NCBI GenBank assembly: GCA_001782045.1
Contig: MFNK01000012.1
Span: 21,753-85,752 of the forward strand
Length of the DNA stretch: 64,000 nucleotides
Origin: Candidatus Levybacteria bacterium RIFCSPHIGHO2_01_FULL_36_15b
GTDB taxonomy: Bacteria; Patescibacteriota; Microgenomatia; Levybacterales; UBA12049
Direction: 5' to 3'
Part shown: piece after piece, positions 1 through 60,855 of the stretch
How the letters are laid out: the number at the start of each line of letters is the position of its first letter
How positions within the stretch are numbered: the stretch's first letter is position 1
The notes under the pieces: model-generated
Seen by the model: only the letters and a program-made list of their open reading frames with translations
Databases searched by the model: none
Told to the model about the DNA's origin: nothing
Translations under genes and position numbers: made by a program

Positions 1-860
1 TGATCTAGCGTAGCTTTAATAAGCTCCGGAAACATATGTGTCATCTCCTCTAGGTTTCTTGAAAACATCCGCACATTTTGTCCGTCTTTGTGGATCTGAA
101 CCCTGAATCCATCGTATTTATACTGAACATCGACCTCTCCCATTTTTTCGATTACTTTTTCGGGGTTGGGAAGTCTTTCGCAAAGCTCGGATCTAATTGG
201 AGAACCAACGCGGACTTCAAGCCGTTCGACTCCGCTCAGGCCCTTTTGCCAAAGGGTTTTTGCAATTAAACCCAAATCTGAGGTTCTATTGTAAGCCCCT
301 TCAAGTTTTTTTCGGTTTAGTTTGTCTCCTAATTTTGCTGTTGCTAGAGCATCCAAAATTGTAGGATCGCCAATTCCCAAACGCGTATTTCCAAGCGGTA
401 TACGCACTAAATGCTTTGCAGAAATAGCATCTAATTTTTTAAGAAGGCCAGAAAGCAGCGCTTGTCTTTTTTCTACTGTTCCCTCACCGCTTGTTTCTGC
501 AATTTGAGTCAAAACTTCAAAAACCTCGCTTACGGATAACTTTGAACTTTGAACTTTGAACTTTGAACTAAACTGCTCTGCAGTTTTTCCCATGTCTCCT
601 AATTTGTTGAAAAGATTTATTACTTTTTCTTTATCCGATCCATATGCGTTTGCTAAAGCCGAAGCAACACTTTTTTCCGCCATTCCCATTTCAACAGGTG
701 CATAAAATGGTGCTATTCTTCCTTGAATTAAATAAACAATTTTTTCGATTTCTTCCTCCGGAGTTTTATTAAAAAGCTCAGATAAAATTTCAATCAAAGA
801 AAGTCTAGAAGATGTTTCCTCAAGCTTTTCTAGATATTTTGCAAGTTCTGTAAATTTCAT
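1..860 (-). CDS. lig: ATP-dependent DNA ligase, N-terminal part (gene runs off the window start)
   Basis: Hand translation of the minus strand from the ATG at 858-860 gives MKFTELAKYLEKLEETSSRLSLIEILSELF..., then ...KYDGFRVQIHKDGQNVRMFSRNLEE, which contains the KxDGxR adenylation motif. There are no stops through to position 1. The plus-strand ORFs at 78..269 and 322..507 lie opposite it and are spurious. Confidence 0.75.
   Translation of the reverse strand, partial: MKFTELAKYLEKLEETSSRLSLIEILSELFNKTPEEEIEKIVYLIQGRIAPFYAPVEMGMAEKSVASALANAYGSDKEKVINLFNKLGDMGKTAEQFSSKFKVQSSKLSVSEVFEVLTQIAETSGEGTVEKRQALLSGLLKKLDAISAKHLVRIPLGNTRLGIGDPTILDALATAKLGDKLNRKKLEGAYNRTSDLGLIAKTLWQKGLSGVERLEVRVGSPIRSELCERLPNPEKVIEKMGEVDVQYKYDGFRVQIHKDGQNVRMFSRNLEEMTHMFPELIKATLD
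541..568. repeat. Tandem heptamer TTTGAAC x4, in-frame inside the ligase gene (encodes SSKFKVQSSK)
   Basis: Direct reading of ...aac tttgaac tttgaac tttgaac tttgaac taaac... Confidence 0.8.
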
Positions 861-861
861 G

Positions 862-1923
862 TTATGACATTATATACTTTGCGCCTTTTGTAACCCCATG
901 TTTTTTAATTATTCCAGCTTTAAGCAGAGCCTTAAGTTCGTTTAGTATTGTATCCTCGGAAATCATAGGAAATAAACCTTCAAAAGCCTGATTTTGCAGA
1001 TATCCTACTTTTTGAATATATTCTATAATTTTTAGCTGCCTCGGAGACAAAAGAATGGGTGCGCCACCTAATTTTTCTTTTAGCCTTGCATCAATAGAGA
1101 TGTTTTCTACTTTTTGTCGTATCTTGGATAGCTCGAAAGACAAACCCAAAGTAAAATATTCAAGCCATTTAGTTAAATCTCCATCGTACTTTTCCACACT
1201 TTGCAAAGCCTCGTAATACTTAAGAGCGTCTTGATCAAAATATTCCTCTAAAGAAAAAAATCGCCTTATATCATATCCTTCTAAAAATAAAATAAGAGTT
1301 GCAAAAGCACGGGCCACTCTTCCGTTTCCGTCTAAGAAAGGATGTATTCTAACAAATTCATAATGAACAATTCCGCTTTCCAAAACGGGGTGAATATCTT
1401 GATTTTTAGAGCTTTCTATAAACTCCAAAAGTTCTTTAATTTGAAAAGGAACGGCAACTGCCATGGGTGGTCTAAAAGAAATCTCACCCGTTAAACTATT
1501 TTTTACAACTACTTGAGTTTTTCTGTAAACACCATTCTGCGCTTCGGGTAAAATTTTATAAACTGTCATCCTGTGGAGCTCTTTAATTAAATCCTGAGTA
1601 ATTTTGAACTCTGAACTCTGAACTCTGAATTGCTCTATGTATTCCAAAACTTTTCTATAATTAATAACCTCCTGTACGTCTCTTTCTCTTGCTGCTATAT
1701 TGTGCCCCATTAAAACTTTTTCAGCCTCTGTTAGGTTTAGCTCGTTACCTTCGATGTGTGTTCCGTAATGGACAGAACGAACAAGAGCGTCTTCTCTAAA
1801 TTCTTTTTCAAAGTAGGGTAAAAGTGGTGCATGATCAATTATTTCTTTAGATGCCTCAATGGAGCCGATGTTTTTAAGGATTTGATTGCTAATGTAGAAT
1901 TTAGGCTTATACATGCGTAACAA
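862..1923 (-). CDS. fic: Fic/Doc family protein (adenylyltransferase-type fold)
   Basis: Fic motif HPFLDGNGRVARAFATL. The 353-aa ORF sits one base from the ligase start. Confidence 0.8.
   Translation of the reverse strand: MLRMYKPKFYISNQILKNIGSIEASKEIIDHAPLLPYFEKEFREDALVRSVHYGTHIEGNELNLTEAEKVLMGHNIAARERDVQEVINYRKVLEYIEQFRVQSSEFKITQDLIKELHRMTVYKILPEAQNGVYRKTQVVVKNSLTGEISFRPPMAVAVPFQIKELLEFIESSKNQDIHPVLESGIVHYEFVRIHPFLDGNGRVARAFATLILFLEGYDIRRFFSLEEYFDQDALKYYEALQSVEKYDGDLTKWLEYFTLGLSFELSKIRQKVENISIDARLKEKLGGAPILLSPRQLKIIEYIQKVGYLQNQAFEGLFPMISEDTILNELKALLKAGIIKKHGVTKGAKYIMS
1604..1630. repeat. Tandem heptamer TTGAACT/CTGAACT x3-4, in-frame inside fic (encodes RVQSSEFK)
   Basis: Direct reading of ttgaact ctgaact ctgaact ctgaat. 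It is related to the repeat at 541-568. Confidence 0.8.
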
Positions 1924-2222: not shown

Positions 2223-2948
2223 TCAAAGAGTCTTTAAAAACCAGGAAATAATTTTGTTTTGAGAATCTTTTTTTTGTTTTGGCTGAACACTTAATCTATG
2301 TTTTGCTCCTTTTATAACATATTTTTCTTTCTTAGCTACATTTTTTGCCATATCAAAATATAAATCATCCATACCTTCAGGTAACACATCATCGAATTCA
2401 CAAACCTGAACCATTAATTTTCCACGATATTTTTTAATTTCTTTATAAGATTCACTTTCTTCAAATCCTAAATGATCTACCGCGTCTCTCTGTTTATTTA
2501 GCGAAGAGGACGAAAACGAAGCAGGAGCCTCAAGGACTATTGATTTGACATTAAATTTATTAGCTAGCATTGATGCAATATAACCACCAAAGCTTCCTCC
2601 GACAAAACCTAATCTATTTTTATCTAATTCAAGCACTGTAAGAAAAAACCCTACTGCTTCTATGCTATCTTCTATGCCCATTTCTACTGTTTGATCTTCA
2701 AATTTACCCTCGCTCGGACCTGCTCCTCTATAGTTAAAATGCAACGCTAATATCCCTTCTTCTGCCAGCATTTTTGCAGTTTCTAAATGTACAACACCTA
2801 TTCCACCACTCCCATGAAAAAAAATTACTCCTGGAAATGGACCTTTTCCCTCTGGGACAAATAAAGATCCACGGAGTGTTTCTTGCCCTACTTTAAATTC
2901 AACCTGCCTGCCGGCAGGCAGGCTTTCTTTTTTTACTTTTATTTTCAT
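2223..2948 (-). CDS. alpha/beta-hydrolase fold protein (dienelactone hydrolase / peptidase S9-like)
   Basis: GGSFGG nucleophile elbow, HGSGG motif, 241 aa. It overlaps the recF stop. Confidence 0.55.
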   Translation of the reverse strand: MKIKVKKESLPAGRQVEFKVGQETLRGSLFVPEGKGPFPGVIFFHGSGGIGVVHLETAKMLAEEGILALHFNYRGAGPSEGKFEDQTVEMGIEDSIEAVGFFLTVLELDKNRLGFVGGSFGGYIASMLANKFNVKSIVLEAPASFSSSSLNKQRDAVDHLGFEESESYKEIKKYRGKLMVQVCEFDDVLPEGMDDLYFDMAKNVAKKEKYVIKGAKHRLSVQPKQKKDSQNKIISWFLKTL

Positions 2949-4008: not shown

Positions 4009-4971
4009 TTATTTAAAGGCTATTATTGTTCTAAATTGTATATCAGACAAATTTTGCTCTCTACTATCTAGCCCTTGAGATTGTGCATCCTCAGCTCCTC
4101 TTATAATAACTTTTGCTTCTCTCCCAAACGATTTGTGGTGTGAGGTTGAAGTCCACTCAGGCCATATATTACGTTGTTCCAAGCGATTTAAATACAAATT
4201 AGTCTCCAATGCATTTGGGAGTCTTAATTCTGCTTGTCCTTCTTCAAGTCCTAATACTCCTTGAAGTATAAAATAAGTTCGGTCAGCTAGAATTTGTTGG
4301 ACTTCATGATAAGTTGAGGCTCTTGAATTTATACCTAAATATGTATTAAGTGGTGGTGGAGTTTGATTCCCGTAATAAGCGCCGTTAGGATTATCAGAAT
4401 TTAATTCTATGGCCACCCATTGTCCCGGCATTCGTGGAAGATCTATACTTTTATTTTTTACATTTTCCCAAAATTTATTGTTTATATTCCTATAATTTGC
4501 CCTAACGCCAATTTGCTGCTCTGTTAAATCTTCGTAAGGTTTCCAATTTGGATAATTACTATTTAAATATTGGGGAATCGTTTGACCTTGAGCAAAAAGA
4601 TCTATTACGCTTAAGTTTCCTTCTAGATCCGGCATATAAATTAGCTGCATGTTTAAATTATCTAACTTATCTATTAAACTTTTTGTAATTATTTGGTTTC
4701 CTTTTTCATCAACCGGTAAGGGTTTTATATAAAGACCTGTCCCCAAAATCTGTTTCCAAACCTTTTCTTCACGTTTAATTAAAGTTTTCCATAAATCGTC
4801 CTCTTTTTTTTCTGGAACTTGCCTTGTACGCTTTTTCTCTGTTTTTGGAACTTTTAGCAGCACTTTTGCAGCTTCTTCTTGCGGAGAAGTTCTAACATTG
4901 TACGGATCTAGATCCGCTACCTCGTCTGCTCTTGTAATACCTTCTTCTGATCTTAATTCTTCCATAGGCAC
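4009..4971 (-). CDS. Hypothetical protein, RADEVADLDPY-motif family, large paralog B
   Basis: N-terminal GITRADEVADLDPYNVR. Shares internal blocks with 4985..6037 (YPNWK, MPGQWVAIE, LIYMPDLEGNL). Confidence 0.55.
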   Translation of the reverse strand: MPMEELRSEEGITRADEVADLDPYNVRTSPQEEAAKVLLKVPKTEKKRTRQVPEKKEDDLWKTLIKREEKVWKQILGTGLYIKPLPVDEKGNQIITKSLIDKLDNLNMQLIYMPDLEGNLSVIDLFAQGQTIPQYLNSNYPNWKPYEDLTEQQIGVRANYRNINNKFWENVKNKSIDLPRMPGQWVAIELNSDNPNGAYYGNQTPPPLNTYLGINSRASTYHEVQQILADRTYFILQGVLGLEEGQAELRLPNALETNLYLNRLEQRNIWPEWTSTSHHKSFGREAKVIIRGAEDAQSQGLDSREQNLSDIQFRTIIAFK

Positions 4972-4984
4972 AATTATACCAAAT

Positions 4985-6037
4985 TTAGCCTGATTGAGGC
5001 TTTCTAATGTCTGAAAACCTTCTATCCCGTTTTCTGTTTATTCTCATTTCTTTTATTTTTTCGTTTCCTAATATAATTGGGACTGCAAGCGCTGCAGGAC
5101 CAGTCATAAGAGGAGAAAGCGGGGGAAGCGGTTTGGGTGGTTTTTCCTCTTTATCGAAGACAATCATTAATCGAAAACCCAAATCGTTTGTATCTTCGCT
5201 TACGTTTACAACTAATGCTTCATTTTCATCTGCTACCAAAACAAAGGGTGGTTTTTTATCTCCTATTCTTTGCTTATCCTTCCCAAAGTACGAACTGTCG
5301 GTCCATTCTAACTTGATGCCCTGATCCCAATTTTCTCTTTGGTTTAAAACATTCCATTCGATAAAATCGGGGAGTCTAATATGGGCATCCTTGGCAATTC
5401 CAAGTTCGGCCAACTTTCCTTTTCCCTTAGATTCTAATTCTTGATATATAAAATCCCATGAAACATCTCTCCTGGGTTTATATGGCGCAAAAAAATCTGC
5501 AAATGGCCTTACATCGTAAGGTTGGTCACCTTGTGGTACTTTTACATTTTCAACTGCTACCCACATACCGGGCAAAAATGGAAAATCGATATTTCTTGCT
5601 TTTACTTGCTCCCAATACCATTCTTCAGGTATATTTTTCCAATTGGGATAAACCTCCAAACGGTCATTCATAAAACCCTCAGCGCCTAATCGCTTTAGCC
5701 AGTTTAATCCAGCGAGATTTAAATTCGGAATATATCTTAAATCGAATCCTGCCTTTTCCAATGTTTTAAATGTTTCTTCATCTATCTGATGCGGCAAATC
5801 TTTAATGTCAAAAGCAGCTCCGCCTAAGACTTTTTTCCATTCGTTTTTTTCTCTTTTTATAATTTCTTGAGGGTTAAATTCGGGCTCTGGTTGCGGCTCT
5901 GGTTGCGGCTCTGGTCCAAGTAATTCTTTAGCTGCTTTTTCGTTTCCTTTTTCCCTAACTTTATATGGATCAAGTTCTGCGACTACGTCTGCTCTTGTGA
6001 TACCTTGCTCTAGTTCACTTGATTTTAGTTCGCTCAT
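4985..6037 (-). CDS. Hypothetical protein, RADEVADLDPY-motif family, large paralog A
   Basis: N-terminal GITRADVVAELDPYKVR. Has a PEPQ x3 repeat and the YPNWK and LPGMWVAVE blocks. Its stop overlaps the AAA+ gene upstream. Confidence 0.55.
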   Translation of the reverse strand: MSELKSSELEQGITRADVVAELDPYKVREKGNEKAAKELLGPEPQPEPQPEPEFNPQEIIKREKNEWKKVLGGAAFDIKDLPHQIDEETFKTLEKAGFDLRYIPNLNLAGLNWLKRLGAEGFMNDRLEVYPNWKNIPEEWYWEQVKARNIDFPFLPGMWVAVENVKVPQGDQPYDVRPFADFFAPYKPRRDVSWDFIYQELESKGKGKLAELGIAKDAHIRLPDFIEWNVLNQRENWDQGIKLEWTDSSYFGKDKQRIGDKKPPFVLVADENEALVVNVSEDTNDLGFRLMIVFDKEEKPPKPLPPLSPLMTGPAALAVPIILGNEKIKEMRINRKRDRRFSDIRKPQSG

Positions 6038-17751: not shown

Positions 17752-18951
17752 TTAAAGCCATAATTTTTTGAGGTTTGGAAAATTATTGTTGAGAATTGAT
17801 TCGCGGATTTGACGGGTAAGATTTAGTAAAAAATGTACATTGTGTAGGCTCAATAAGTTATAAGAAAGCAGTTCACGAGAGCGGAATAAATGATGGATAT
17901 ATGCTCTACTAAAGTTTTGGCACGAATAACAGTTGCAGTTTGAATCAAGTGGTTTTGAATCTTTCCGGTATTGCGGCTTATCAATGTCTGTTCTAAATCT
18001 GTTTTTCATGCTACCTTGTGGTGGTGAAATAAAAAAGAAACCTGTTCGTCCAATTCTTGTTGGAATTACGCAGTCAAAAGTATCAACTCCACGCTCTATA
18101 ATTTCAAAAATATCATCTATCTCCCCAATTCCTAGAAGATGTCTGGGTTTTTCTTCGCTTGTATTTTTAACTGTCCAGTCAATTACGTCATAGAGATTTT
18201 TCTTTGATAGATGTGCCCCACCTAACGCAATTGCGTCGAAATTTTTGTCTACAAATTTTGCGCTTTCAGTCCTCAATTCTTTGAATTGTCCACCATGAGT
18301 TACTCCATATAAAAGTTGCGATTTGTTCTTTTGAGACGCTTTTGAGCGCAATTCCCAACGATTTGTGAGCTCCAAGCTCTTCTTTGTTTTCTCGTGATCA
18401 TATTTTGGAGATTCCAAATCATCAAAGCTAACTATTAAATCCGCTCCTAATTTTTCCTGAATTTCAATTGAGGACTCAGGTGTCAATTTATGAGTTGAGC
18501 CGTCTATGTGAGACTGAAATGTCACTCCTTCTTCCGTAATTCGGTTTAACCGTCCTGAGCCTGTCGAAGGATTGTTTTCGTCTGTTATAACATTGTTATA
18601 ACGTATCTCATTTCTTAGAAACTTTACTCCCCCGCCTTCTTTGCCAACTCCAAGTGAAAACACCTGAAATCCTCCGGAATCTGTCATAGTAGGGCTATTC
18701 CAGCTCATCCATTTAGAAAGTCCCCCCATTTTTTTTATCAGGTTTTCTCCCGGCCGAAGATGTAAGTGATAAGTATTTGCCAAAACAATTTGTGCTCCGG
18801 CTTCTTTTAAATCCTTTGGCGAGATTGCTTTCACGCTTCCTTGTGTTCCAACAGGCACAAAAGCAGGCGTTTCAATGTCTCCGTGGGGAGTTTTTATAAT
18901 CCCGGCCCTAGCGGCTTTGCTTTTCTTGATAATTTTGAAAGTGGGTTTCAT
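17752..18951 (-). CDS. tgt: Queuine tRNA-ribosyltransferase
   Basis: N-terminal ARAGIIKTPHGDIETPAFVPVGT and zinc site CNCYSC...H. Confidence 0.85.
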   Translation of the reverse strand: MKPTFKIIKKSKAARAGIIKTPHGDIETPAFVPVGTQGSVKAISPKDLKEAGAQIVLANTYHLHLRPGENLIKKMGGLSKWMSWNSPTMTDSGGFQVFSLGVGKEGGGVKFLRNEIRYNNVITDENNPSTGSGRLNRITEEGVTFQSHIDGSTHKLTPESSIEIQEKLGADLIVSFDDLESPKYDHEKTKKSLELTNRWELRSKASQKNKSQLLYGVTHGGQFKELRTESAKFVDKNFDAIALGGAHLSKKNLYDVIDWTVKNTSEEKPRHLLGIGEIDDIFEIIERGVDTFDCVIPTRIGRTGFFFISPPQGSMKNRFRTDIDKPQYRKDSKPLDSNCNCYSCQNFSRAYIHHLFRSRELLSYNLLSLHNVHFLLNLTRQIRESILNNNFPNLKKLWL

Positions 18952-20273
18952 TTTTTGAGGGCATTTACTTCTTTTCTAAACTGTTCGCCTCTGTCTTTAT
19001 AGTTCTTAAACATATCATAACTTTTGCACGCCGGGGACAAAAGAACAATGTCGCCGCTTTTTGCAATTTTCGAAGCTGCTAAAACTATTTTTTCCATACT
19101 ATCTGCCCCTTCAACGAGAATTAGATTTGATTTTTGATATTTGATTTTTGATTTAATTTTCGGCCAATCTCTTCCGATCCCTATAATTGCTTTTATAGTT
19201 TCGTTCTTTGAAATTATACCTCCGAGTTCTATGAAGTCGCTCCCCTCGCTTAAACCACCCAAAATAAGAATTTTAGGCTGGTTAAAAGCCGCAATCGCAG
19301 CCATTGCGCTCTCGGGATTTGTAGCAATCGAATCGTCATAATATTTAACTCCACCAACTTCTATAACAAGCTCAAGTCTATGCGGAAGTCCTTTAAAATC
19401 GTGGATCGCAGCTTTCATTACCTCGATTGAGACACCAGATAAATATGCTGCTACAGAAGCTGCTGCTATGTTTTCAAAATTGTGAGCTCCGGGAATAATA
19501 ATATCTTTTGTATCGATTACTTTCCTATCGTTTCCAGCAATTCTCAGCCATATTGCTTCATCTTTAACAAAAGCGCCTTCATCTACATCCCTTTCACGCG
19601 AGAAAAAATAGATTTTTCCATCTGTGTGAATATCCGATTCACTGCTTGCAGGATAGTCTCTATTTATAATTGCAAAATCAGAAGAATTTTGAAAACGTAT
19701 CAAATTTCTTTTTGCATCAATATATTCGTCTAAATCTTTATGGAAATTTTTCTGCCACTTAGAAGGTATAAGATGTTCTGATGTAACCATTAACATTACT
19801 GCAATATGGGGGCTTTTATGTAAGTCTTGCAACTGAAAACTGGAAAGTTCTAACACCACAATTGATGAACTGTTTAGTTGTTCAATAAAGTCCAATGGGG
19901 GCTTTCCGATATTGCCGCCTAAATACACATCTTTTCCACTTTTTTTCAACATTTCCTGTATTAGTGAGGATGTCGTTCCCTTTCCTTTTGTTCCGGTTAC
20001 TCCAATAATGGGACACGGACATAAATCGAAAAAGAGTTTTGTTTGGGATGTTACTTTTTCCTGAGGAACATTTTTTAGAAGTTCTAATTTAATTCCCGGA
20101 CTTCTAACAACTAGATCATATTTCTCTAAGTTATCTAAATAATTACTCCCCTGTTTTTGATCAAGTATTGTAACTTCTGCATCTTGTTTTTCAAGAAACT
20201 TTGCGCTCGATAATCCCTCTATTCCCTCTCCGATTACGGCGATTTTTTTATTCTTAAAATTCATGTAGGCCAA
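18948..20273 (-). CDS. murD: UDP-N-acetylmuramoylalanine--D-glutamate ligase
   Basis: Mur-ligase P-loop GVTGTKGKGTT plus N-terminal Rossmann IAVIGEGIEG. Confidence 0.8.
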   Translation of the reverse strand: MAYMNFKNKKIAVIGEGIEGLSSAKFLEKQDAEVTILDQKQGSNYLDNLEKYDLVVRSPGIKLELLKNVPQEKVTSQTKLFFDLCPCPIIGVTGTKGKGTTSSLIQEMLKKSGKDVYLGGNIGKPPLDFIEQLNSSSIVVLELSSFQLQDLHKSPHIAVMLMVTSEHLIPSKWQKNFHKDLDEYIDAKRNLIRFQNSSDFAIINRDYPASSESDIHTDGKIYFFSRERDVDEGAFVKDEAIWLRIAGNDRKVIDTKDIIIPGAHNFENIAAASVAAYLSGVSIEVMKAAIHDFKGLPHRLELVIEVGGVKYYDDSIATNPESAMAAIAAFNQPKILILGGLSEGSDFIELGGIISKNETIKAIIGIGRDWPKIKSKIKYQKSNLILVEGADSMEKIVLAASKIAKSGDIVLLSPACKSYDMFKNYKDRGEQFRKEVNALKK

Positions 20274-24560: not shown

Positions 24561-26933
24561 TCAGAGGCGGGCGCGTTGGGCAATAATTGGCTCGAGTTTA
24601 TTAACCGGCACTCCGTATTTTACTCTAGATAATTCCCTAATTAACTCGGCAACTCTTTTGTTTTCCACTTGCTTTTCCTTGGTCATATCTCTTGTTAAAT
24701 CCATAGAAAATGAAGTTACAGGCTCGTTATTTACAATGGTTTTAACATAGGCGTTATAAACATCTACATTAATTAAATCTGCCTCTGTAAAAGTCGGCTG
24801 AAACTCGTGTTGTAGGTAGCTCGCATCCGTTACCCCTACTCTAAACGCTGCCAAAGTACCAACGTTTCCGAAAATTGCATTTTTAACCTCTTCATCCATT
24901 TGTCCTATAAACTGGTTTGCAACAATTAAATTGAGCCTGTATTTTCGGGCTTCTGACAAAATCTGTGCAAAATCAGGTGTTGCAAAGTTTTGAAACTCAT
25001 CTACATATAAATAAAAGTCTCGTCTTGATTCTTCTGGTATATCCTGCCTGCTCATTGCTGCAACCAAAATCTTAGGAACCAAAACTAAACCTAAGAAGCT
25101 AGCGTTTTCTTCTCCTATTTTTCCTTTGGATAAAGAGACGAGAAGAATTTTACCCTCATCCATTGCCTTTCTAAAATCAAATGCGCTCTTGCTTTGCCCA
25201 ATTATGTTTCTCATCATCTTATTTGTGACAAACCGGCCAAATTTGGAAACAATATAATCTAAGGTTTCTGATTTATGGAAATCGGAAGTCTGTGCAATTT
25301 GGTCTGTCCAATAACGTCTAATAATTGGATCCTGGACTTTAGGAAGCAGCTCCTGAACAAAATTTGAATCAGTAAGAGCACGTACAACTTCTATAAAAGT
25401 GCTTCCCGGCTCGCTCATTACGGTTAACATTGCGTTTCTTATAGCATGCTCAAAACGGGGGCCAATAATTCCGGTTTTATTGGGGTCGTAAAGCTTGTAC
25501 ATGAGCCCTACAATTGAGCTTACAATATAGTGTTTTTCCTGCTCGGTTTGGGCCTCTAACATGTTTAGTCCAAGAGGCATTTCCGTGTCTGATGGATCAA
25601 ATAAAATTACATCTTCTGCCCGCTCCGGCGGAATTAAAGGTAAAAGTTTATCTATTGTGTCGTGGGGATCGATAAAGCAAACCCCTTCCCCATTTCTTAT
25701 GTCCTGCAAAATCATGTCTTTAAGAAATTCGGATTTTCCCGTTCCAGTTTTTCCAATTACATACATATGTCTTCGTCTGTCATCTTTTTGAATATATACA
25801 GGTTTTGCCATACCCCTGTATGTACTCATTCCAAGATAAAGTCCTGTACTTGGAATTTGAACGGGTGCGGGCGCTTTTTTGGCATTAAGCCAGAAAATAT
25901 GAGGCGTTTGTATGGTTTTATTTGGAAAATGATAAACTCCGGCAAGCTCTTCGCTTGTTAAAACCGAAAAGTTTCCGGTTGCCGGGAAGTAGCGATAAAT
26001 AAAATCTGTTATAAAATTTCCTTTTAAAAACTGCTTCTGTTTTGTAAATTCATTAAATGACGCAAACTGATCGAATGCATTTTCCAAATTGTTAAGATGG
26101 GCCTCTGCTGCTTCCTTAGTAGAGGATGAAACAACCAATCTTACTACTGTATAAAAGCCGGGTTTTCCTATTTTTTGCTCAACAGCTTCAAGTTCTTTAG
26201 GGTCTGAAGAATACTTTGCAGTTTCCGGGTTTGATTCTCTTTTTTTAGTATCTGCGATGTGTTTTCTACCCATCTTAGACCATTTTGAATCTGCACCAGA
26301 AATTAAAATTTGAATTGCTGCGCCCTCTCCTTCCCCCATTTTGGCAAGGACAGAAGTTATTGAGGATATTGGATCAACTGCAAATTCTTTATAAACTTTT
26401 AAGGATTTGTAATTACTGTCTTTAAGTTTCAAGGTTTTGAATGCAACGCTACCATTTTCAGAAAATATATTATATTCATTGCCTAAAATGTAGCCTTCCT
26501 TTGAGTATCTCGAATTACCTTCTTCTACGACTCGTATTTCGGCATCCGGGTAAGAAGCGTTAATCTGCTTTTCAACCATGTCTTTATATTTATTAGGTGT
26601 GTATATGAAAAACCGAATGTCGCCAGGCATTCCTACTATTTCAAAAGATATATGAGGTCTGTATTTTAAAAACTGCAGGCGACCGCTTGATTTTATCCCT
26701 GCAAAAGCGCTAAAAAGCTGTTCTGCGGCGTCAATTTTTATTTCGTTGTCTCTTGGAAGCGCAATTTGCAAAAGAGTCGAGTCTAAGGAATGCTTTTCGC
26801 GTTCTCTATTTCTGTACCAAACCATCCAAACATATCCAAGCCCAACCACTACAGCAGCCATTAAGATAAGAATTCCTACTGTAACAAATAGCGATATTAG
26901 TAACTGAGTTAGAGCTGTTAAAGAATTTATCAT
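24561..26933 (-). CDS. VirB4/TrbE/CagE-family type IV secretion ATPase with N-terminal TM segment
   Basis: Walker A VIGKTGTGKSEFLKDM and Walker B LYVDEFQNFAT. 790 aa with an N-terminal hydrophobic helix. Confidence 0.8.
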   Translation of the reverse strand: MINSLTALTQLLISLFVTVGILILMAAVVVGLGYVWMVWYRNREREKHSLDSTLLQIALPRDNEIKIDAAEQLFSAFAGIKSSGRLQFLKYRPHISFEIVGMPGDIRFFIYTPNKYKDMVEKQINASYPDAEIRVVEEGNSRYSKEGYILGNEYNIFSENGSVAFKTLKLKDSNYKSLKVYKEFAVDPISSITSVLAKMGEGEGAAIQILISGADSKWSKMGRKHIADTKKRESNPETAKYSSDPKELEAVEQKIGKPGFYTVVRLVVSSSTKEAAEAHLNNLENAFDQFASFNEFTKQKQFLKGNFITDFIYRYFPATGNFSVLTSEELAGVYHFPNKTIQTPHIFWLNAKKAPAPVQIPSTGLYLGMSTYRGMAKPVYIQKDDRRRHMYVIGKTGTGKSEFLKDMILQDIRNGEGVCFIDPHDTIDKLLPLIPPERAEDVILFDPSDTEMPLGLNMLEAQTEQEKHYIVSSIVGLMYKLYDPNKTGIIGPRFEHAIRNAMLTVMSEPGSTFIEVVRALTDSNFVQELLPKVQDPIIRRYWTDQIAQTSDFHKSETLDYIVSKFGRFVTNKMMRNIIGQSKSAFDFRKAMDEGKILLVSLSKGKIGEENASFLGLVLVPKILVAAMSRQDIPEESRRDFYLYVDEFQNFATPDFAQILSEARKYRLNLIVANQFIGQMDEEVKNAIFGNVGTLAAFRVGVTDASYLQHEFQPTFTEADLINVDVYNAYVKTIVNNEPVTSFSMDLTRDMTKEKQVENKRVAELIRELSRVKYGVPVNKLEPIIAQRARL

Positions 26934-28900: not shown

Positions 28901-29449
28901 CTAAGATCTGGTGGACCAAATTACTTCTTTCTTTTTATCTTTTTTGTTAATAAATCGGGCATACACAAATAAAACGTCAGAAAGTCTATTGAGATAAATC
29001 AGTGTTTGAGGATTAACTTTTTCTTTTTCAGAAAGCTCTACAGTTTTTCTTTCAGCTCTTCTTGCAAGGGTACGGGCGTAATGTAGGTGGGATCCCGAGA
29101 CCGATCCTCCGGGAAGAATAAAGTTTTCTAGTTCTGGCAATTTTTTTGAGAGGTTATCGATTTGATATTCGAACTCTTCTGTTCTTTTAAACAAATATTT
29201 TCCCATTTCTTTAAATTTGCCAGTCGATGGGTTAGCAAGAAACGCTCCTATTTCAAAAAGATCATTCTGGATTCTTATTAGTTCTTTTTTAATTTCTTGA
29301 GGAAGTTTGTAGGAAAGCACAATGCCTAAATAACTATTGAGCTCGTCTAAGGTGCCGTATGTATTGACCCTAAGACTTGCTTTAGAAACGGTTTTACCTC
29401 CGTACAGAGATGTTTTTCCTTTGTCTCCAAATTTTGTATAAATTGACAT
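28901..29449 (-). CDS. PduO-type ATP:cob(I)alamin adenosyltransferase (start taken at MSIYTKFGDKG)
   Basis: MSIYTKFGDKGKTSLYGGKTVSKASLRVNTYGTLDELNS is the canonical PduO/MMAB N-terminus. The 41-codon upstream extension of the ORF is probably not translated. Confidence 0.7.
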   Translation of the reverse strand: MSIYTKFGDKGKTSLYGGKTVSKASLRVNTYGTLDELNSYLGIVLSYKLPQEIKKELIRIQNDLFEIGAFLANPSTGKFKEMGKYLFKRTEEFEYQIDNLSKKLPELENFILPGGSVSGSHLHYARTLARRAERKTVELSEKEKVNPQTLIYLNRLSDVLFVYARFINKKDKKKEVIWSTRS

Positions 29450-29473
29450 AATTTCCAAATAAAAAAGTCCTCT
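29443..29473 (-). terminator. Intrinsic-terminator-like hairpin (AGTCCTCT-ACG-AGAGGACT) followed by a T-run, immediately 5' of the adenosyltransferase ATG
   Basis: Read directly from the sequence. On the minus strand it reads ...GCAGTCCTCTCGTAGAGGACTTTTTTATTTGGAAATTATG. Confidence 0.5.
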
Positions 29474-29649
29474 ACGAGAGGACTGCGGCTGCCCTGCTCG
29501 GAGCTTAAATTTTGTATCGTTTTCTGGATATACAGTACCGGCAGTTCCGCCGACTTTCACGGCGATTTCCAATACAAAGTTTTAAATTTTATTTAATTAG
29601 GACATTCGGCTGAGCTCAGTCGAAGCCAAAGTTGGACAAGTCATATTTA

Positions 29650-32094
29650 TTAACACTCTGAATAGCCACAGGCATAACATTTTTTACAACCTTCTTCATA
29701 TGCCAGAGATGCTGCACCGCAATCAGGACAAATATCATAAAGTCCGGTTGAAGCTGCAGACGTTGAAAGCTCATTTGATGGAGTAGGAGCAAGAGTAAGC
29801 TGCTCCAGTTTTACTACATCATCTTTTACTTCTACTATAATATCCGCAGCTTTTGGAAGGTGTGAATTTGCTTTCCCGTTTAGAGCCCCATTTCCGTTTG
29901 AATGCCCATTAGAAAGCCCATTTGTAATAATTTTTTTATCCTCTACAATTCCGTTAACTCTAAATTCGAAATGCCTGGATAGTATTTTTGCAACCGCATC
30001 AGGAAGAGAGCGCACCCTATTTTCTCCGAAACCAACACTTCTTGCTCCCCCAATTCCTATTAATTGCGCAACAACTTGTCTAATTCGCTCGCGTGGCGCC
30101 AGCATTCCATTTAGCCTTAAGTTTAACGAGATCATTCTTCCCAATGCGTCTGCCATTGCTGCAACATCACTTCCTGATTTTCCTACCGTTATAAATACTT
30201 CGAAAGGCTCTTTACTTGTATCGTGGTTAATTGTTATGTAAGTTTTGCCAACAGGTGTCTCTGTTCCGTATGTTACTCCCTCAACCACCATTGGTCTTGG
30301 AATAACCGGAACTTGGGGTATTTGAACTATTTCTTCTTTTTTATCCTCTTTCTTGTCTTCTTTTCGCGATAGAACGCCCTCACGAGAACCATCTCTCATA
30401 TATGTTATTCCCTTTAATCCTGCATCATATGCCATACTATAGAGCCTTTTTACATCTTCGACGGTATGTGAATTGGGAGCATTAACAGTTTTTGATATTG
30501 AAGAATCTATATAATCTTGCGCTACAGCTTGAACTTTAACATGATCCTCGGGAGATAAATCGTTTGCAGACACAAAATAATCGGGTTTTTCCGCTTTTGG
30601 ATTTTCTTTTTTCCACTCTTCAAATAGAGGATGGTACATCATGTGTTCGCCAAGCCTATCTCGTCTTATAAACTCAAACTCATAAACCGGCTCGACTCCG
30701 GAGGAAACTCCAGAAATAAGCGATGTAGTTCCTGTTGGCGCAATAGTTAAGAGCACCGCATTTCTAATTCCCTGTTTTGCAATTTTCTTTTTTATATCTT
30801 CGGGTAGTTTTTGTATGTGAAATCCTTTTTGATATTTTTCTTTGTTATACTTTGGGAAACTTCCTTTCTCTAATGCTATGTCCGAGGAAGCAATATAAGC
30901 GTTATCTCTTAATGTTTTAAATATTTTCTCTATTACCGGCAGACTTTCTTCAGAACCATATCGTACTTTCATTTTTATCAAAGCGTCTGCAAGTCCAAGA
31001 ATTCCCAAACCGGTTCTTCTTATGTTTTTTGCAACCTTCTCATTTTCTTTATAAAAGTAATATGTTTCATCTATAACATTGTCCAAAAATCTCATTGCGA
31101 CTCTTACGTCTTTTCCAAAATTATCATAGTCAAATTCTCCTCTTTTGTTTACGTAAGCAGATAGATTCATCGCACCTAAATTACAAACTGCCCAGGGAGA
31201 AAGTGGCTGCTCGCCGCACGGATTAGTTGCTGAAAGTCTCTCAAAATACCAAGTATTACTCCTTTTGTTTGACCTATCCAAGAAGTGAAGCCCCGGCTCT
31301 GCGCTTTTCCATGCTGCCGTGCAAATCAAATCCCATAGATACCTTGCTTTTATGGTTTTATAAACCTTTAATTTCCCCCCCAATTTCTTCCATTCTTCGA
31401 TATCGCCCTTCCATTTTTTATCGTATTTTTTATCATCCAAATCAGGAAAAACTAAATCCCAATTCCCATCTTTTTTAACTGCCTCCATAAATGCGTCAGA
31501 CACGCAAACAGAAAGATTAGCGCCATTTATTTTATTTAAATCTTCTTTTACTGTTATAAACTCTTCTATGTCCGGATGCCAATCATGAAGCATTAACATC
31601 AAGGCGCCTCTTCTGCTTCCACCCTGCTGTACAATGTCTTTTGTTGCCAGGGAGTAAAGCTCTGCCCAGTTCATTGGACCCGAAGAGAATCCATTTACTT
31701 TTTTAACTCTTGCTCCTCTTGGCCGAAGCGAAGATAGATTAACTCCAACTCCTCCTGCTCTTGCCATAATTTCAATCATCTGGGTTAGATTTTCCATTAT
31801 TCCGCCCCTTGAGTCTGGGGGATTGGGAATAACAAAACAGTTAAAATAACTTACTTCAAAGCCGGTGCCTGCGCCTGATAATATTCTTCCGCCCGGTAAA
31901 AACTTGAAGTCGTACATTGCGTCATAAAATTTTTTCTCCCATTTTTTTCGGTCTTTTGGTTTTTCAACGCTGGCAATTGCCTTAGCTACTCTTTTCCACA
32001 TTTCATCGGGAGTTTTTTCCAGAGCGTTACCCGCTTGGTCTTTTAATGAATATCTATCTAAAAATACTTTTTGTCTTACACCGTCTAATTTCAT
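29650..32094 (-). CDS. nrdJ: Class II (adenosylcobalamin-dependent) ribonucleotide reductase
   Basis: 814 aa. The N-terminus ...VFLDRYSLKD... is NrdJ-like, and the C-terminal Cys cluster CPDCG...CKKCYACG is typical of monomeric class II RNR. Confidence 0.75.
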   Translation of the reverse strand: MKLDGVRQKVFLDRYSLKDQAGNALEKTPDEMWKRVAKAIASVEKPKDRKKWEKKFYDAMYDFKFLPGGRILSGAGTGFEVSYFNCFVIPNPPDSRGGIMENLTQMIEIMARAGGVGVNLSSLRPRGARVKKVNGFSSGPMNWAELYSLATKDIVQQGGSRRGALMLMLHDWHPDIEEFITVKEDLNKINGANLSVCVSDAFMEAVKKDGNWDLVFPDLDDKKYDKKWKGDIEEWKKLGGKLKVYKTIKARYLWDLICTAAWKSAEPGLHFLDRSNKRSNTWYFERLSATNPCGEQPLSPWAVCNLGAMNLSAYVNKRGEFDYDNFGKDVRVAMRFLDNVIDETYYFYKENEKVAKNIRRTGLGILGLADALIKMKVRYGSEESLPVIEKIFKTLRDNAYIASSDIALEKGSFPKYNKEKYQKGFHIQKLPEDIKKKIAKQGIRNAVLLTIAPTGTTSLISGVSSGVEPVYEFEFIRRDRLGEHMMYHPLFEEWKKENPKAEKPDYFVSANDLSPEDHVKVQAVAQDYIDSSISKTVNAPNSHTVEDVKRLYSMAYDAGLKGITYMRDGSREGVLSRKEDKKEDKKEEIVQIPQVPVIPRPMVVEGVTYGTETPVGKTYITINHDTSKEPFEVFITVGKSGSDVAAMADALGRMISLNLRLNGMLAPRERIRQVVAQLIGIGGARSVGFGENRVRSLPDAVAKILSRHFEFRVNGIVEDKKIITNGLSNGHSNGNGALNGKANSHLPKAADIIVEVKDDVVKLEQLTLAPTPSNELSTSAASTGLYDICPDCGAASLAYEEGCKKCYACGYSEC

Positions 32095-48003: not shown

Positions 48004-48010
48004 TTTATTT

Positions 48011-48373
48011 GTGGAGATGTCGGGAAGTGATCCCGAGTCCAAGAAAGTGATTTTAAAAACTTCTACAAGCTTATTTTGTTATTTTTTTGATCGCCTTACT
48101 CTTTGAAAACAAACATCCATAAGTAAGGTCAAGGTTATAAATTCAAAAGAGCTCTAACCAGTTTCTCTTTAGATTTCTCGACTAAGTTTATGCCCAAAAT
48201 GTCTCATCGAGAAAAGACATTAAGGACAGCTCAACTAGTTAAGCAAAAGCAAAACGAGGCTGAGCGAATGAAGAGTTTCCTCTATCATTTATAGTTTTGA
48301 CCTGTTTTACGACTTAGATCATTGTCGGCTTGCAGTTTTTAAAGAACTATCCTGTCGATGCATTTGCATCCCC
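48011..48373 (-). ncRNA. ssrA: tmRNA (transfer-messenger RNA)
   Basis: No ORF in any frame. The minus-strand 5' end GGGGATGCAAATGCATCGACAGG resembles the canonical tmRNA 5' end (GGGGAcG...GATTCGACAGG). The 3' end GGAC-TCGGG-ATCACTT-CCCGA-CATCTCC-A is a tRNA-like T-arm plus acceptor that pairs with the 5' GGGGATG. An internal tag-like reading frame reads ...NDRGNSSFAQPRFAFA-TAA. The gene lies next to smpB. Confidence 0.7.
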
Positions 48374-48412: not shown

Positions 48413-49105
48413 TTAATCCCTTGCTAAAGTAAGGCCGAACACGACTTTTGCGCCGGCTCGCTTGAGCACATTTGCAGCTTCTTTTAGGGTAGAACCGGTT
48501 GTAACAACATCATCCACAAGAAATATATTTCTGGCTTCCAGTTTCAAGCTTCTATCATCTAACTCGAATGCTTCTTTAATATTTTCTTTCCTCTCTTCTT
48601 TTGTAAGTTTAAACTGGCTTTTTGTATCTTTTAATCTTACAAGCAAGTTTTGAACGGGAATATTTAATTTTTTTGAAAGAGCAATAGATAAAATTTCTGC
48701 CTGATTATATCCTCTTTTACGAAGTTTGGAACCGTATAAAGGAACAGGAGCCATAAGCCATTCGCCATTAGCTATAAGCTTCATGAACTGCTCATTTTGA
48801 ATAATACTTTCTACAAAAAGTTCTGACAAAAAAGTTTTTAAATCTGAAAGATATGGCTTATATTTAAAATTAAAAATTAGCTTTCTTGCGATTTTGTTAT
48901 AAGAAATTGCGCTAAAACAGCCATCTATTGAATACCTACTTTTGCATTTGGGATGAGTAAGACTATTGTAAGTTGGTTTGTCGCAAACCAAACAAAGATT
49001 CTTTACATCAAACGAGATAAATGGAAGACAGTTTGCACAAACATAATCCCCTGATTTTGCACAATTAACACATTTTTTTGGGAAAATTAAATCAATTAAG
49101 TTCAT
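48413..49105 (-). CDS. comF: ComF family protein (phosphoribosyltransferase domain, N-terminal zinc finger)
   Basis: CVNCAKSGDYVCANC zinc finger and the PRTase motif LVDDVVTTGSTL. Confidence 0.75.
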   Translation of the reverse strand: MNLIDLIFPKKCVNCAKSGDYVCANCLPFISFDVKNLCLVCDKPTYNSLTHPKCKSRYSIDGCFSAISYNKIARKLIFNFKYKPYLSDLKTFLSELFVESIIQNEQFMKLIANGEWLMAPVPLYGSKLRKRGYNQAEILSIALSKKLNIPVQNLLVRLKDTKSQFKLTKEERKENIKEAFELDDRSLKLEARNIFLVDDVVTTGSTLKEAANVLKRAGAKVVFGLTLARD

Positions 49106-49146
49106 TGATAAGTTAAATAGTAAATGGTAAATTGTAATTAGTAAAT

Positions 49147-49704
49147 ATGGTCAAGATTTTTATATTCCGCCACGGAGAAACCTACGATAATAAACACCAC
49201 GACTTTTCAGGATGGAGAAATGTAGATTTGGATGAAGCTGGAATCATTGAAGCACAAAAAATAAGAGATGCGCTGCAAAACGAACACGTGTCAAAAGCTT
49301 ATCAATCAGACTTACTACGCTCCCAAAGAACTCTTGAAATTGTTTTAGAAGATCATGAAAGTGTTGATGTGATAACAGACTCACGGATTAAAGAAAGAGA
49401 CTACGGAGATTTAACCTCTATGTCAAAAGACGCTCTTAAACAAAAAGACCCCGAAGATTTTGAGCTTTGGCACAGAAGCTATGAAGTCGCACCTCCAAAT
49501 GGAGAAAGCATTAAAGACGTAGAAAAAAGAGTTTTGGAGTTTCTTAATGATGAAATTCCTAAGTGGAAAGCGGGTGATGTAATTTTTATATCAGCTCATG
49601 CAAATTCAATAAGACCCCTAAGAAGATATTTTGAAAAGATTTCAATTGAAGAGATGTGCAGTTACGAAAATATCCCCGGCAAAATCTACGAATACCAAAT
49701 TTAG
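49147..49704 (+). CDS. Histidine phosphatase superfamily (phosphoglycerate-mutase-like) protein
   Basis: RHGETYDN catalytic motif and a downstream SAHANSIR. Confidence 0.75.
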   Translation: MVKIFIFRHGETYDNKHHDFSGWRNVDLDEAGIIEAQKIRDALQNEHVSKAYQSDLLRSQRTLEIVLEDHESVDVITDSRIKERDYGDLTSMSKDALKQKDPEDFELWHRSYEVAPPNGESIKDVEKRVLEFLNDEIPKWKAGDVIFISAHANSIRPLRRYFEKISIEEMCSYENIPGKIYEYQI

Positions 49705-49792
49705 CGGAGAAGGTGAGATTCGAACTCACGCGAGCTTATTCAGCTCAAGGGTTTAGCAAACCCTCGCAATGGACCATGCTATGCGACTTCTC
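49705..49792 (-). tRNA. tRNA-Ser (anticodon GCU)
   Basis: Manual fold of the reverse complement: GGAGAAG...AGGGT-TTGCTAA-ACCCT, long variable arm, GTGAG-TTCGAAT-CTCAC, CTTCTCC-G. Confidence 0.8.
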
Positions 49793-49833
49793 CTTGAAAG
49801 TATTATAATTCAGTAGGAAGCTAAAATCCAGTT

Positions 49834-50547: not shown

Positions 50548-50600
50548 TACTTCCCGCTTATCTTTGGAAATACTCATTTTTGAGTTATAATATCAACCAA

Positions 50601-50688
50601 GGAGAGGTCGCATAGTTGGTCTAGTGCGTTCGCTTGGAAAGCGGATATTGTCGTAAGGCAATCGCGGGTTCGAATCCCGCCCTCTCCG
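50601..50688 (+). tRNA. tRNA-Ser (anticodon GGA)
   Basis: GGAGAGG-TC...anticodon loop TTGGAAA, long variable arm, GCGGG-TTCGAAT-CCCGC, CCTCTCC-G. Confidence 0.8.
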
Positions 50689-50689
50689 C

Positions 50690-51121: not shown

Positions 51122-51130
51122 TAAGCACGA

Positions 51131-51214
51131 GGAAGGTTGGCCGAGCGGTTCATGGCGCTGGTTTTGAAAACCAGTGAGCGAAAGCTCTCAGAGGTTCGAA
51201 TCCTCTACCTTCCG
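51131..51214 (+). tRNA. tRNA-Ser (anticodon UGA)
   Basis: GGAAGGT...CTGGT-TTTGAAA-ACCAG, long variable arm, AGAGG-TTCGAAT-CCTCT, ACCTTCC-G. Confidence 0.8.
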
Positions 51215-51257
51215 CAGGTTTCTTGACTTATTCTTCAATCTCTCTTAAAGTTAAGTT

Positions 51258-59547: not shown

Positions 59548-60855
59548 TTATGGAATAAACTTAAAGCCTCGGCCTTTTATTGTTTGTATGTGCGTTGGGG
59601 AATTTGGATTTTCTTCTATTTTTTTTCTTAGCCTAAAAATAAGCTGGTCAAGTGCTTGATCGGTTACTCCTAAAACTGTTTTTTGCTCTCCCCAAACTGC
59701 ATTTATTATTTCCTCTTTTTCTACAATTCTTTCTTTATTCTCAAGCAAAAATTTAAGTAGCCTATACTCAAGAGCGGTTAGTTTTTCGGATAATACATTT
59801 AAATCTAGTGCGTCTTCTTTTAAATCAGAAGCTTTTTCTTTTGCGTAGTCACCAAAAAGCGGGATCGAAAGTAATTTGTCTTTTATCAAACCTACTTTTT
59901 CTAAAAAGGGGGAGATGTTAAAATTTCCTCCTGCCTGCGCAGGCAGGTTTACAATCAGTTTTTGTTCTTGTGGTGTTAAAAAGTTCCAAATTGCAAAAAG
60001 AGCGCTTCGAACGGGTTTTTGTGTAAGAAAATATTTTCTTAAAAGCTGTTTATTGTCAAGCAACTCTGTGCCTGCAAGAAAGCTTTCTGCACATAGTCGA
60101 ACAAGGTTGGTGTGTCCTCCAGTGAGCTCGAAAATCTGTGAAAGTAATGTTTTATCTAATTTTTTATTCGTAATTTTTTCTAAATATGAAACCCTAAAAT
60201 CTAAACCTGCTTCATCCGAAATAGGTAAATAAACTACTTTTCCTGCAACCGTTTCGTAAAAATCTGCAAAAAAAGTTGGGTCAAAAGTATCCTCAAGCGG
60301 CCTATTTAAAGAAAAAACGACTGAAAATTTATACTTTGCCCTGTTTCTTAAAATCTTTAGGTTTGCAAAAAATTCACTTGTTATAGTTGGGGCATATTCT
60401 TCAAACCTATCGAAAAGCAAAACAACATTTAAGTCTTTTTCCAAAGACAAATAATCTATTGCTTTTTTTAATCCTGAAAATATAACCATTTCGTCTTTAA
60501 GGCTTATACTTTCTTTAAAAATCTTATTTACAACTTCGTATCTTTTAGAAAATCCTCTGTCTTTTAAAGAATCTATAACTCCAATAAAGATGAACTTGAA
60601 TACGTCTGAAAGGGGCTTTTTTCTTATTTCTGAAAAGTTTAAATATACAAAGTGGTAATTTTTTTGAGAATCTCCTAGGTGTTTTTCGCGGACTTTTTTG
60701 TTATAAGCTAAGAGTCCCAAAAAATTAGATCTTCCAACTCCGGGAATTGAAACGAGTTGCACCGAATTGCCTTCTTTAACAAAAGACAAAACTTTTTCTA
60801 TTTCTTCAAATCTTGTATTTTCCGGATAAAGATATTCAAAATGCTTATCTTCCAT
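59548..60855 (-). CDS. Putative transcriptional regulator: N-terminal P-loop ATPase-like domain and C-terminal OmpR/PhoB-type winged-helix DNA-binding domain
   Basis: The C-terminus LEYRLLKFLLENKERIVEKEEIINAVWGE...TIKGRGFKF is trans_reg_C-like. The N-terminal GVGRSNF is loop-like. Confidence 0.5.
   Translation of the reverse strand: MEDKHFEYLYPENTRFEEIEKVLSFVKEGNSVQLVSIPGVGRSNFLGLLAYNKKVREKHLGDSQKNYHFVYLNFSEIRKKPLSDVFKFIFIGVIDSLKDRGFSKRYEVVNKIFKESISLKDEMVIFSGLKKAIDYLSLEKDLNVVLLFDRFEEYAPTITSEFFANLKILRNRAKYKFSVVFSLNRPLEDTFDPTFFADFYETVAGKVVYLPISDEAGLDFRVSYLEKITNKKLDKTLLSQIFELTGGHTNLVRLCAESFLAGTELLDNKQLLRKYFLTQKPVRSALFAIWNFLTPQEQKLIVNLPAQAGGNFNISPFLEKVGLIKDKLLSIPLFGDYAKEKASDLKEDALDLNVLSEKLTALEYRLLKFLLENKERIVEKEEIINAVWGEQKTVLGVTDQALDQLIFRLRKKIEENPNSPTHIQTIKGRGFKFIP

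Follow-up and report, generated by a model that had tools for sequence, protein, structure and literature searches.

Genes and heptamer arrays of the locus

The DNA analysed here, referred to as the window, is a stretch of 64,000 nucleotides (nt) of contig MFNK01000012.1 from Candidatus Levybacteria bacterium RIFCSPHIGHO2_01_FULL_36_15b. It begins with two adjacent genes of the minus strand, encoding an ATP-dependent DNA ligase and a Fic/DOC family protein, each of which carries inside its open reading frame (ORF) a short tandem array of a 7-nt unit. An original prediction, made from the letters alone, had taken these two tracts for inserts of one repeat family and for possible phase-variation switches. 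The present work describes such heptamer mini-arrays as a class found across Candidatus Levybacteria and weighs the processes that may have produced them. The features concerned are the following, with lengths of proteins in amino acids (aa), ORF or structural support from Pfam and the Protein Data Bank (PDB), and repeats called with Tandem Repeats Finder (TRF).

1..860, minus strand: ATP-dependent DNA ligase gene, 5' part, running past the window start (Pfam DNA_ligase_A_N and _M; PDB 2hiv at 1.5e-62)
538..569, minus strand: heptamer mini-array AGTTCAA x4.6 in the ligase gene (TRF, sequence, translation)
862..1914, minus strand: Fic/DOC family gene, 350 aa (Pfam PF02661 at 4e-20, PDB homologues)
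1600..1630, minus strand: heptamer mini-array in the Fic gene, 31 nt, perfect core 1605-1629 (TRF, sequence, ORF translation)
19126..19154, minus strand: imperfect heptamer array AAATCAA x4.1, 91% match, in a MurD-like gene (TRF, separate scan, Pfam, sequence)

The presence of tandem heptamers in the ligase and Fic ORFs, on the same strand and with open frames, was confirmed by TRF and by translation. On the coding strand, the ligase tract is a perfect AGTTCAA x4.6 of 32 nt (538-569; period 7, 4.6 copies, 100% match) translated as FSSKFKVQSSKL, the peptide (F)SSKFKVQSSK(L) falling within the N-terminal DNA-binding domain of the enzyme. The Fic tract, read on the coding strand from 1630 to 1600, is ATTCAGA GTTCAGA GTTCAGA GTTCAAA ATT, with the general form [A/G]TTCA[G/A]A x4.4 (1600-1630) and a core at 1605-1629 detected with period 7, 3.6 copies and a 100% match; it encodes FRVQSSEFKI. 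In both cases the reading frame stays open through the array. The likeness of the two peptides, which had also been pointed out, is real, yet it adds nothing to the likeness of the DNA, since three successive copies of a heptamer pass through every reading frame and inevitably yield one and the same 7-residue cycle.

Within the window, the pattern GTTCARAGTTCARA with at most one mismatch was matched 6 times, always inside the ligase and Fic tracts, against 0.22 matches expected. Moreover, a scan of the window for perfect tandem repeats (periods 4 to 15, 3 copies or more) gave these two arrays and a trivial ATTA x3, and nothing else. The third array, at 19126-19154, is also in frame; its host gene (18948..20273, minus strand; Mur_ligase_M/_C in Pfam) codes for a MurD-like Mur ligase, where the array falls in the C-terminal domain and encodes KIKSKIKYQKSN. 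Weaker period-7 TRF matches of 73-81% were seen at 49114-49147, 59510-59541, 48749-48779 and 59123-59152, some of them apparently intergenic, and these stretches are possibly decayed arrays.

The ligase start codon is placed 2 nt past the Fic stop codon (window 858-866), and the order of Fic followed by ATP-dependent DNA ligase is kept in 76 of 79 Levybacteria species loci. The window Fic protein is identical to OGH10708.1 and OGH34083.1, from metagenome-assembled genomes (MAGs) of Candidatus Levybacteria, and was present on 15 contigs in an exact-protein look-up; the full-length ligase has 577 aa in L161 (L numbers being our handles for the sequences compared). That a Fic AMP-transferase adjoins an enzyme working through a lysyl-AMP intermediate, the DNA ligase, suggests a functional link between the two.

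Heptamer arrays across Candidatus Levybacteria

Loci around Fic homologues were collected, 79 of them species-level genome loci and 80 metagenome loci, and reduced to a non-redundant set of 143 loci plus the window (1.017 Mb), in which perfect arrays of at least 3 copies were counted and compared with the expectation from first-order Markov (Markov-1) shuffles.

Period 3: 8 observed, 6.2 expected
Period 4: 23 observed, 26.8 expected
Period 5: 1 observed, 2.8 expected
Period 6: 0 observed, 0.6 expected
Period 7: 51 observed, 0.2 expected
Period 8: 1 observed, 0 expected

The enrichment is confined to period 7, with periods 3, 4, 5, 6 and 8 at expectation. In addition, the lengths of perfect period-7 runs are bimodal, with a group at 16-20 nt, which consists of pieces of imperfect arrays, a main peak at 30-34 nt (mode 32, maximum 35) and almost no runs of 21-29 nt. 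A wider set of 89 arrays, defined by a length of at least 28 nt and a lag-7 identity of at least 84%, ranged from 28 to 41 nt, again with a mode of 32. Nearly all of these (85/89, 96%) lie within ORFs of 100 aa or more, the A-rich strand being the coding one in 80 of the 85. The 89 arrays are built from 39 different units, whose GC content averages 23%, and a TCAAA core is present in 40 of the arrays. No significant structure was predicted for the RNA of the array-bearing mRNA segments.

By a strict criterion, arrays were present in 23 of 142 Fic loops and in 25 of 125 ligase loops, the latter extracted via tblastn and MAFFT. Further recurrent sites were found at a second and a third position of the ligase, in a loop of the YjeF-like protein encoded upstream, and in several other proteins. 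In the YjeF-like gene, which precedes Fic, the loop follows an ILTPHxxEF motif and holds heptamer arrays in some species (L016 396-1346, L017, L062, L077, L056 and L061 being examples of the locus); in other species the same loop contains long in-frame inserts resembling miniature inverted-repeat transposable elements, with peptides such as VIPNLFRD...MLKQVQHD.

The two window tracts had been thought to be inserts at positions where homologues lack extra residues, and an alignment of both proteins with their homologues had been proposed as a check. Such alignments uncovered equivalent residues and so failed to confirm lineage-specific inserts: homologues carry equal or longer loops at the ligase site and nearly equal ones at the Fic site. 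In HMMER alignments with PDB homologues, the Pyrococcus and Sulfolobus ligases are respectively 3 and 12 residues longer than the window protein at the tract, whereas at the Fic site 8uqu is 3 residues and FICD 1 residue shorter, and both tracts align to linkers of variable length in the solved structures. Among the 120 closest Fic homologues, which come from Candidatus Levybacteria and are 74-99% identical, the majority match the window exactly in loop length, and in an alignment of 40 sequences the tract is the sole run of about 10 consecutive positions lacking a majority residue. An AlphaFold2 model of Fic places the tract in a coil between two helices, and is used as weak support only because of its low confidence (predicted local distance difference test, pLDDT, 45.5). 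On the ligase side, SSKFKVQSSK(L) or the near variants NSKFKIQNSKL, SSKFKLQSSKL and SLKFKVQSSKL occur in the ligases of many other Levybacteria species, and the ligase of L073, only 45% identical to that of the window, has an AGTTCAA array at the same loop. Compared with its nearest sampled relatives, L080 and L001 (76% nt identity), the window ligase loop has two additional codons and a different sequence. As judged from these alignments, the ligase and Fic tracts are not insertions; the loop exists in the homologues, and the array appears to rewrite its sequence.

Unit turnover, overwriting and stop avoidance

At each loop the unit differs from species to species, all the copies having changed together. 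In the Fic loop, units such as AATTCAA, ATCTCAA, AGTTCAC, AGTTAAA and GAATTAA were found, and in the ligase loop AATTCAA, AATCTCA, AAGTCAA, AACTCAA, AAATCAA and AGCAACA. Selection at the protein level for a repeated peptide was rejected as the cause, because the periodicity is exact in the DNA across three frames and the units differ between species.

The clearest case of overwriting comes from ligase site 2, where more than 30 species have EIHKRADKIKVDHKPA. At this site L023 carries AIKVQSSKFKVQSKPA and L024 carries EIKIKSEKLKVKNKPA, and L017, L029 and L071 are similar and in the same register. Since the ancestral sequence is retained in L018, to which L023 and L024 are most closely related (86-90% aa identity), some 33-36 nt must have been rewritten in the L023/L024 lineage and independently in the L029/L071 clade; the arrays replace this stretch at unchanged length. 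The sole clear change of unit number between related species was found in the Fic loop, where L153 differs from L030 (near L030 4302) by an additional 42 nt, that is, 6 units of GAGTCAG, in frame, the two species being 91% nt identical in Fic. A long GAGTCAG array was also noticed in L041.

A further signature is given by the stops that the arrays avoid. In 19 arrays the consensus unit would produce an in-frame stop, and every one of them has a mismatch that removes it, typically TAA to GAA. Mismatches thus affect 19 of the 57 would-be-stop positions (33%) compared with about 3% elsewhere, and the stop-removing change is often the sole imperfection of the array. These mismatches point to a homogenising pressure that continues step by step against purifying selection, and to the genes being translated through their arrays. 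The recurrence of the imperfect arrays encoding KLKVKSEKLKV and KLKIKNEKLK had raised the candidate of a mobile family, which was rejected: the G variant that they share is exactly the change that removes an in-frame TAA, and is therefore better taken as convergence under selection.

As to the relationship between the two window units, the claim that they are two copies of one repeat family stands in so far as both arrays belong to the same class, and is not supported as regards a common origin of the units. In the 7 genomes with both arrays, the Fic and ligase units of one genome are not significantly closer to each other than units taken from different genomes (permutation p 0.07-0.14), so that the statistics lend no support to gene conversion or a common origin of the window's two units. 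The space of possible units is in fact narrow: A-rich, stop-free in three frames and often of the form NNTCAAA. Occasional exchange of units between Fic and ligase arrays is possible, as in L005, where both arrays have the same unit, in L025, where nearly identical 28-nt arrays occupy both genes, and in L016, described below.

Origin of the arrays

The arrays form a period-7-specific, size-limited and in-frame class, recurrent at orthologous loops and subject to concerted evolution, a description in which we have high confidence. They are arrays of about 4.6 units and about 32 nt, with the A-rich strand coding, located in structurally tolerant loops of conserved housekeeping proteins of Candidatus Levybacteria. 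As their source we favour, as rather probable, a homogenising drive acting on the DNA at lag 7 by slipped-strand or template-switch events and filtered by purifying selection, which would yield intragenic heptamer mini-arrays throughout the lineage. For the mechanistic part, conversion through one-unit misalignment, short-patch copying and realignment, our confidence is moderate. During replication or repair, an array would transiently misalign by one unit, through strand slippage or template switching; short-patch copying followed by realignment would then convert position i to match position i+/-7, usually with no net change of length. Purifying selection would remove stops, frameshifts and arrays arising outside tolerant loops, and net changes of unit number would survive only in steps of three units. 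Peptides such as FKVQSSK would be by-products of a heptamer read in three frames.

Several observations weigh against this explanation. The lag-7 conversion itself is an inferred mechanism, as is any reason for the size of about 32 nt. Ordinary slippage does not obviously predict so sharp a mode at 32 nt, nor a length-neutral overwriting of unique flanking sequence, and a dedicated process could hide behind the same pattern. The absence of length change is not universal either, because the arrays of the YjeF-like protein are true insertions, adding 13-15 aa with respect to homologues lacking them. The identical perfect arrays of the window and L073, in ligases so divergent, need either convergence in a narrow unit space or selection on the DNA itself. 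Finally, most of the sampled arrays belong to three loops of one gene neighbourhood, and for this reason the genome-wide generality of the class rests on about 8 gene families and on 3 arrays in the 64 kb of the window.

A bolder version of a DNA-level drive, possible in our view and at the same time doubtful, is that Levybacteria, and perhaps other members of the candidate phyla radiation (CPR), have a dedicated or idiosyncratic process working in a 7-nt register, which would write arrays of about 32 nt into genes, in part by overwriting conserved coding sequence at constant length, and keep them uniform against point mutation, the arrays then serving as preferred landing sites of GC-rich palindromes. 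Such a process would amount to an intragenic molecular drive, or selfish "repeat painting", rather than to ordinary microsatellite slippage. If it exists, it would diversify protein loops in a new way and constitute a new mutational signature.

It is unlikely that the arrays are instead a selected cis-acting element, that is, DNA or mRNA binding sites for a heptad-recognising factor (for example of the oligonucleotide-binding, OB-fold/cold-shock type with one protomer per heptamer, or of the ribbon-helix-helix type) whose footprint would be the 32 nt or so. The near-fixed size would suit such an element, as would the unstructured and A-rich character of the arrays on the mRNA strand and their persistence at the same loops over deep divergence, with the shared array of the window and L073 as the example; moreover, CspB reportedly binds direct repeats of heptamers, its sequence specificity being weak, according to the account in PMC4679880. 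Nevertheless, the 39 units share only their A-richness and, in 40 of the 89 arrays, the TCAAA core, many orthologues are without the array at the site in question and otherwise unchanged, and the hosts are unrelated housekeeping genes in which the arrays occupy protein-tolerant loops, with no preferred place with respect to the start or the end of the gene. No binding factor emerged as a candidate.

An origin in mobile elements is improbable, although the arrays do keep company with them. By this account, GC-rich palindromic mini-elements would duplicate a 7-nt target by insertion and excision, leaving arrays as footprints, or would target existing arrays as landing pads. In-frame GC-rich palindromic inserts of 16-45 nt are often found in the Fic and ligase loops, where they split the array and leave units on both sides; this was seen in the Fic arrays of L016, L029, L054 and L078, and ligase arrays are split likewise in L016, L011, L023, L031, L032, L057 and L076. 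One family of inserts has the form CCATTCG[GA]CAAGCTCAGGAC and the peptide HSASSGQ. In L016, the same 30-nt palindrome, TCCGCCAGAGGCGGATCCGCCTCTGG[A/C]GGA, sits within both the Fic and the ligase heptamer arrays (4296-4317 and 5980-6009), and in L023 and L031 the same 24-nt insert is placed between 2 and 2.6 units of different heptamers. However, most arrays contain no palindrome, and only about 6 of 70 perfect-stem GC hairpins lie in or beside arrays; with most hairpins outside arrays, the association may reflect shared permissive sites rather than a mechanistic link, co-occurrence being expected as well if arrays and palindromes alike persist only in one set of permissive loops. Moreover, overwriting of ligase site 2 at constant length would be impossible by target duplication, stop avoidance indicates stepwise conversion and not duplication, and the comparison of L018 with L023 and L024 already suggests the birth of an array with no trace of a palindrome.

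The window also holds palindromes of this kind outside its arrays. The 20-nt palindrome CCTGCCTGCCGGCAGGCAGG at 2903-2922 is in frame and encodes SLPAGRQVE in an alpha/beta-hydrolase gene (2223..2948, minus strand), and the variant CCTGCCTGCGCAGGCAGG at 59930-59947, also in frame, encodes NLPAQAGGN in an ORF with a Trans_reg_C domain (59548..60855, minus strand). Both are perfect GC-rich palindromes in a 36%-GC genome, with a chance expectation of 0. L040 has the 20-mer CCTGCCTGCCGGCAGGCAGG at the orthologous position of the hydrolase gene, and at least 8 other Levybacteria have it elsewhere; it looks like a small mobile in-frame palindromic element. Between L011 and L012 (about 90% nt identity), several intragenic GC-rich insertions or deletions (indels) were seen, for instance at L011 ~2080 and ~8155; one of them is CCTTCGGCAGGCTCAGGACAAGC, and the C-terminal part of the ligase has another, an insertion of about 50 nt.

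Very unlikely is the account contained in the original prediction, in which the tracts are phase-variable contingency loci and the gain or loss of one heptamer by slipped-strand mispairing reversibly switches Fic and ligase off and on. A unit length of 7, not divisible by 3, and the position of the tracts inside both ORFs are what is first asked of a contingency locus, and arrays of the class can alter their unit number between related species, as the 42-nt difference shows. Nevertheless, no frameshifted loop was detected among 142 Fic and 125 ligase orthologous loops, 48 arrays included, every unrecovered loop being cut by a contig end. A comparison of copy number across strains, which had been proposed as a check, was made on the consensus sequences of five further assemblies of the same organism from different samples: they are 99.9-100% identical to the window, with 0-4 single-nucleotide polymorphisms and no indels, and in all of them the 32-nt ligase array and the Fic array are those of the window. 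Because these assemblies were retrieved through an exact match to the Fic protein, the ligase array alone tests copy number without bias; a preceding scan of metagenome contigs had given nothing closer than 90% in aa identity. Arrays are likewise identical in other pairs of near-identical contigs. At the consensus level, then, both observations that the original prediction had named as refuting it, an invariant copy number and equivalent residues in homologues, were made; a low-frequency OFF subpopulation could escape notice at that level. Furthermore, the sole length change seen is a multiple of three units, the arrays have only 4-5 units, and their hosts are housekeeping enzymes (ATP-dependent DNA ligase, Fic, MurD-like ligase and YjeF-like protein) and not surface, restriction-modification or host-interaction genes, while the stop-avoidance pattern shows selection for read-through. 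Toggling of both genes therefore finds no support in these sequences, and the two tracts do not appear to act as on/off switches, nor should they be cited as evidence of a phase-variable Fic or ligase. The wording of a hypervariable slipped-strand tract holds for the variability between species and for the slippage-type unit change of L030 and L153, and not for the toggling of frames.

Chance, compositional bias or assembly artefact is hardly credible, for although an AT-rich genome (36% GC) raises the background of short repeats, the 51 arrays against 0.2 and the 6 pattern matches against 0.22 far exceed it, MAGs produced by many studies with many assemblers show arrays at orthologous sites, the five assemblies agree in theirs, and the frames are always preserved.

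Other features of the window

Some further features were noted along the window. An adenosylcobalamin (AdoCbl-II, B12) riboswitch at 29509-29588 of the minus strand lies just downstream of a ribonucleotide reductase gene (29650..32094, minus strand, TSCPD domain) and upstream of the ORF 28901..29572 (minus strand). A tmRNA gene and a cluster of six tRNAs are found at 48009-48373 and 49705-51971. The cumulative GC skew is lowest near 40-44 kb, possibly the site of a replication origin or terminus. A 790-aa protein (24561..26933, minus strand) matches, though weakly, TrwB/TraG-type coupling-protein and FtsK/HerA-type ATPase domains.

Significance and comparison with known systems

If the lag-7 drive filtered by selection is correct, a mutational process with a fixed 7-nt register can shape the sequence of essential proteins across a whole candidate phylum, the same surface loops being rewritten repeatedly while selection vetoes only stops and frameshifts. 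The arrays would then offer a clean natural system for the study of concerted evolution and template-switch mutagenesis in coding DNA, and a possible handle on the peculiarities of replication and repair in uncultivated bacteria with reduced genomes. They would also call for caution in the annotation and phylogenetics of CPR proteins, because the loop peptides would be by-products of the DNA and not homologous characters. No report of heptamer repeats in Patescibacteria/CPR was found in the literature searched.

Among known systems, the palindromic elements of Rickettsia and the small dispersed repeats of Nostoc are like the GC-rich palindromes of Levybacteria in being short, mobile-looking and in frame within conserved genes. 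The heptamer arrays differ from them, since they are direct repeats with no palindromic structure, and their sequences are specific to each site rather than copies of one element. The Nostoc repeats, the subject of Elhai et al. 2008, are reportedly associated with heptamer repeats.

The phase-variation simple sequence repeats (SSRs) of Haemophilus, Neisseria, Campylobacter and Mycoplasma share with the arrays a unit that is not a multiple of 3 within an ORF, so that a change of one unit would shift the frame. In contrast, the Levybacteria arrays have no OFF alleles, an invariant copy number among assemblies, only 4-5 units and housekeeping hosts, and read-through is favoured. Another comparison is with the "cryptic simplicity" that Tautz, Trick and Dover reportedly described in 1986, in which slippage generates simple sequence in coding regions and tandem repeats evolve in concert. 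Here too, turnover at the DNA level makes low-complexity peptides in tolerant parts of proteins and units change in concert, whereas the Levybacteria arrays have a single period of 7 nt, out of codon register and read in three frames, and a discrete size.

The nearest relatives by unit length are the heptanucleotide SSRs of prokaryotes, which are over-represented (Mrazek, Guo & Shah 2007, as summarised in PMC4679880 and PMC4692102), with the cyanobacterial short tandemly repeated repetitive (STRR) sequences, the GGGAATC repeats of Xanthomonas and the TAACTGA repeats of Beggiatoaceae as known families (PMC4679880, PMC4692102). An origin by polymerase slippage, tied to a contact length of 7 nt, has been proposed for such repeats (Mrazek et al. 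2007, via PMC4679880 and PMC4692102). The Levybacteria arrays resemble them in that tandem heptamers occur far above chance, 7 nt being the favoured unit length. As far as these summaries go, however, the known repeats are mainly intergenic, often with one dominant unit per genome and a widely variable copy number, whereas the Levybacteria arrays are 96% in ORFs and in frame, use 39 units, are nearly fixed in size at about 32 nt, return in the same protein loops of different species and can overwrite coding sequence with no change of length. The over-representation of heptamer SSRs in bacteria and the existence of specific intergenic heptamer families were already known, while the new elements are the intragenic in-frame arrays of discrete size (about 32 nt), their recurrence at orthologous loops with turnover of the unit, the length-neutral overwriting and the signature of stop avoidance.

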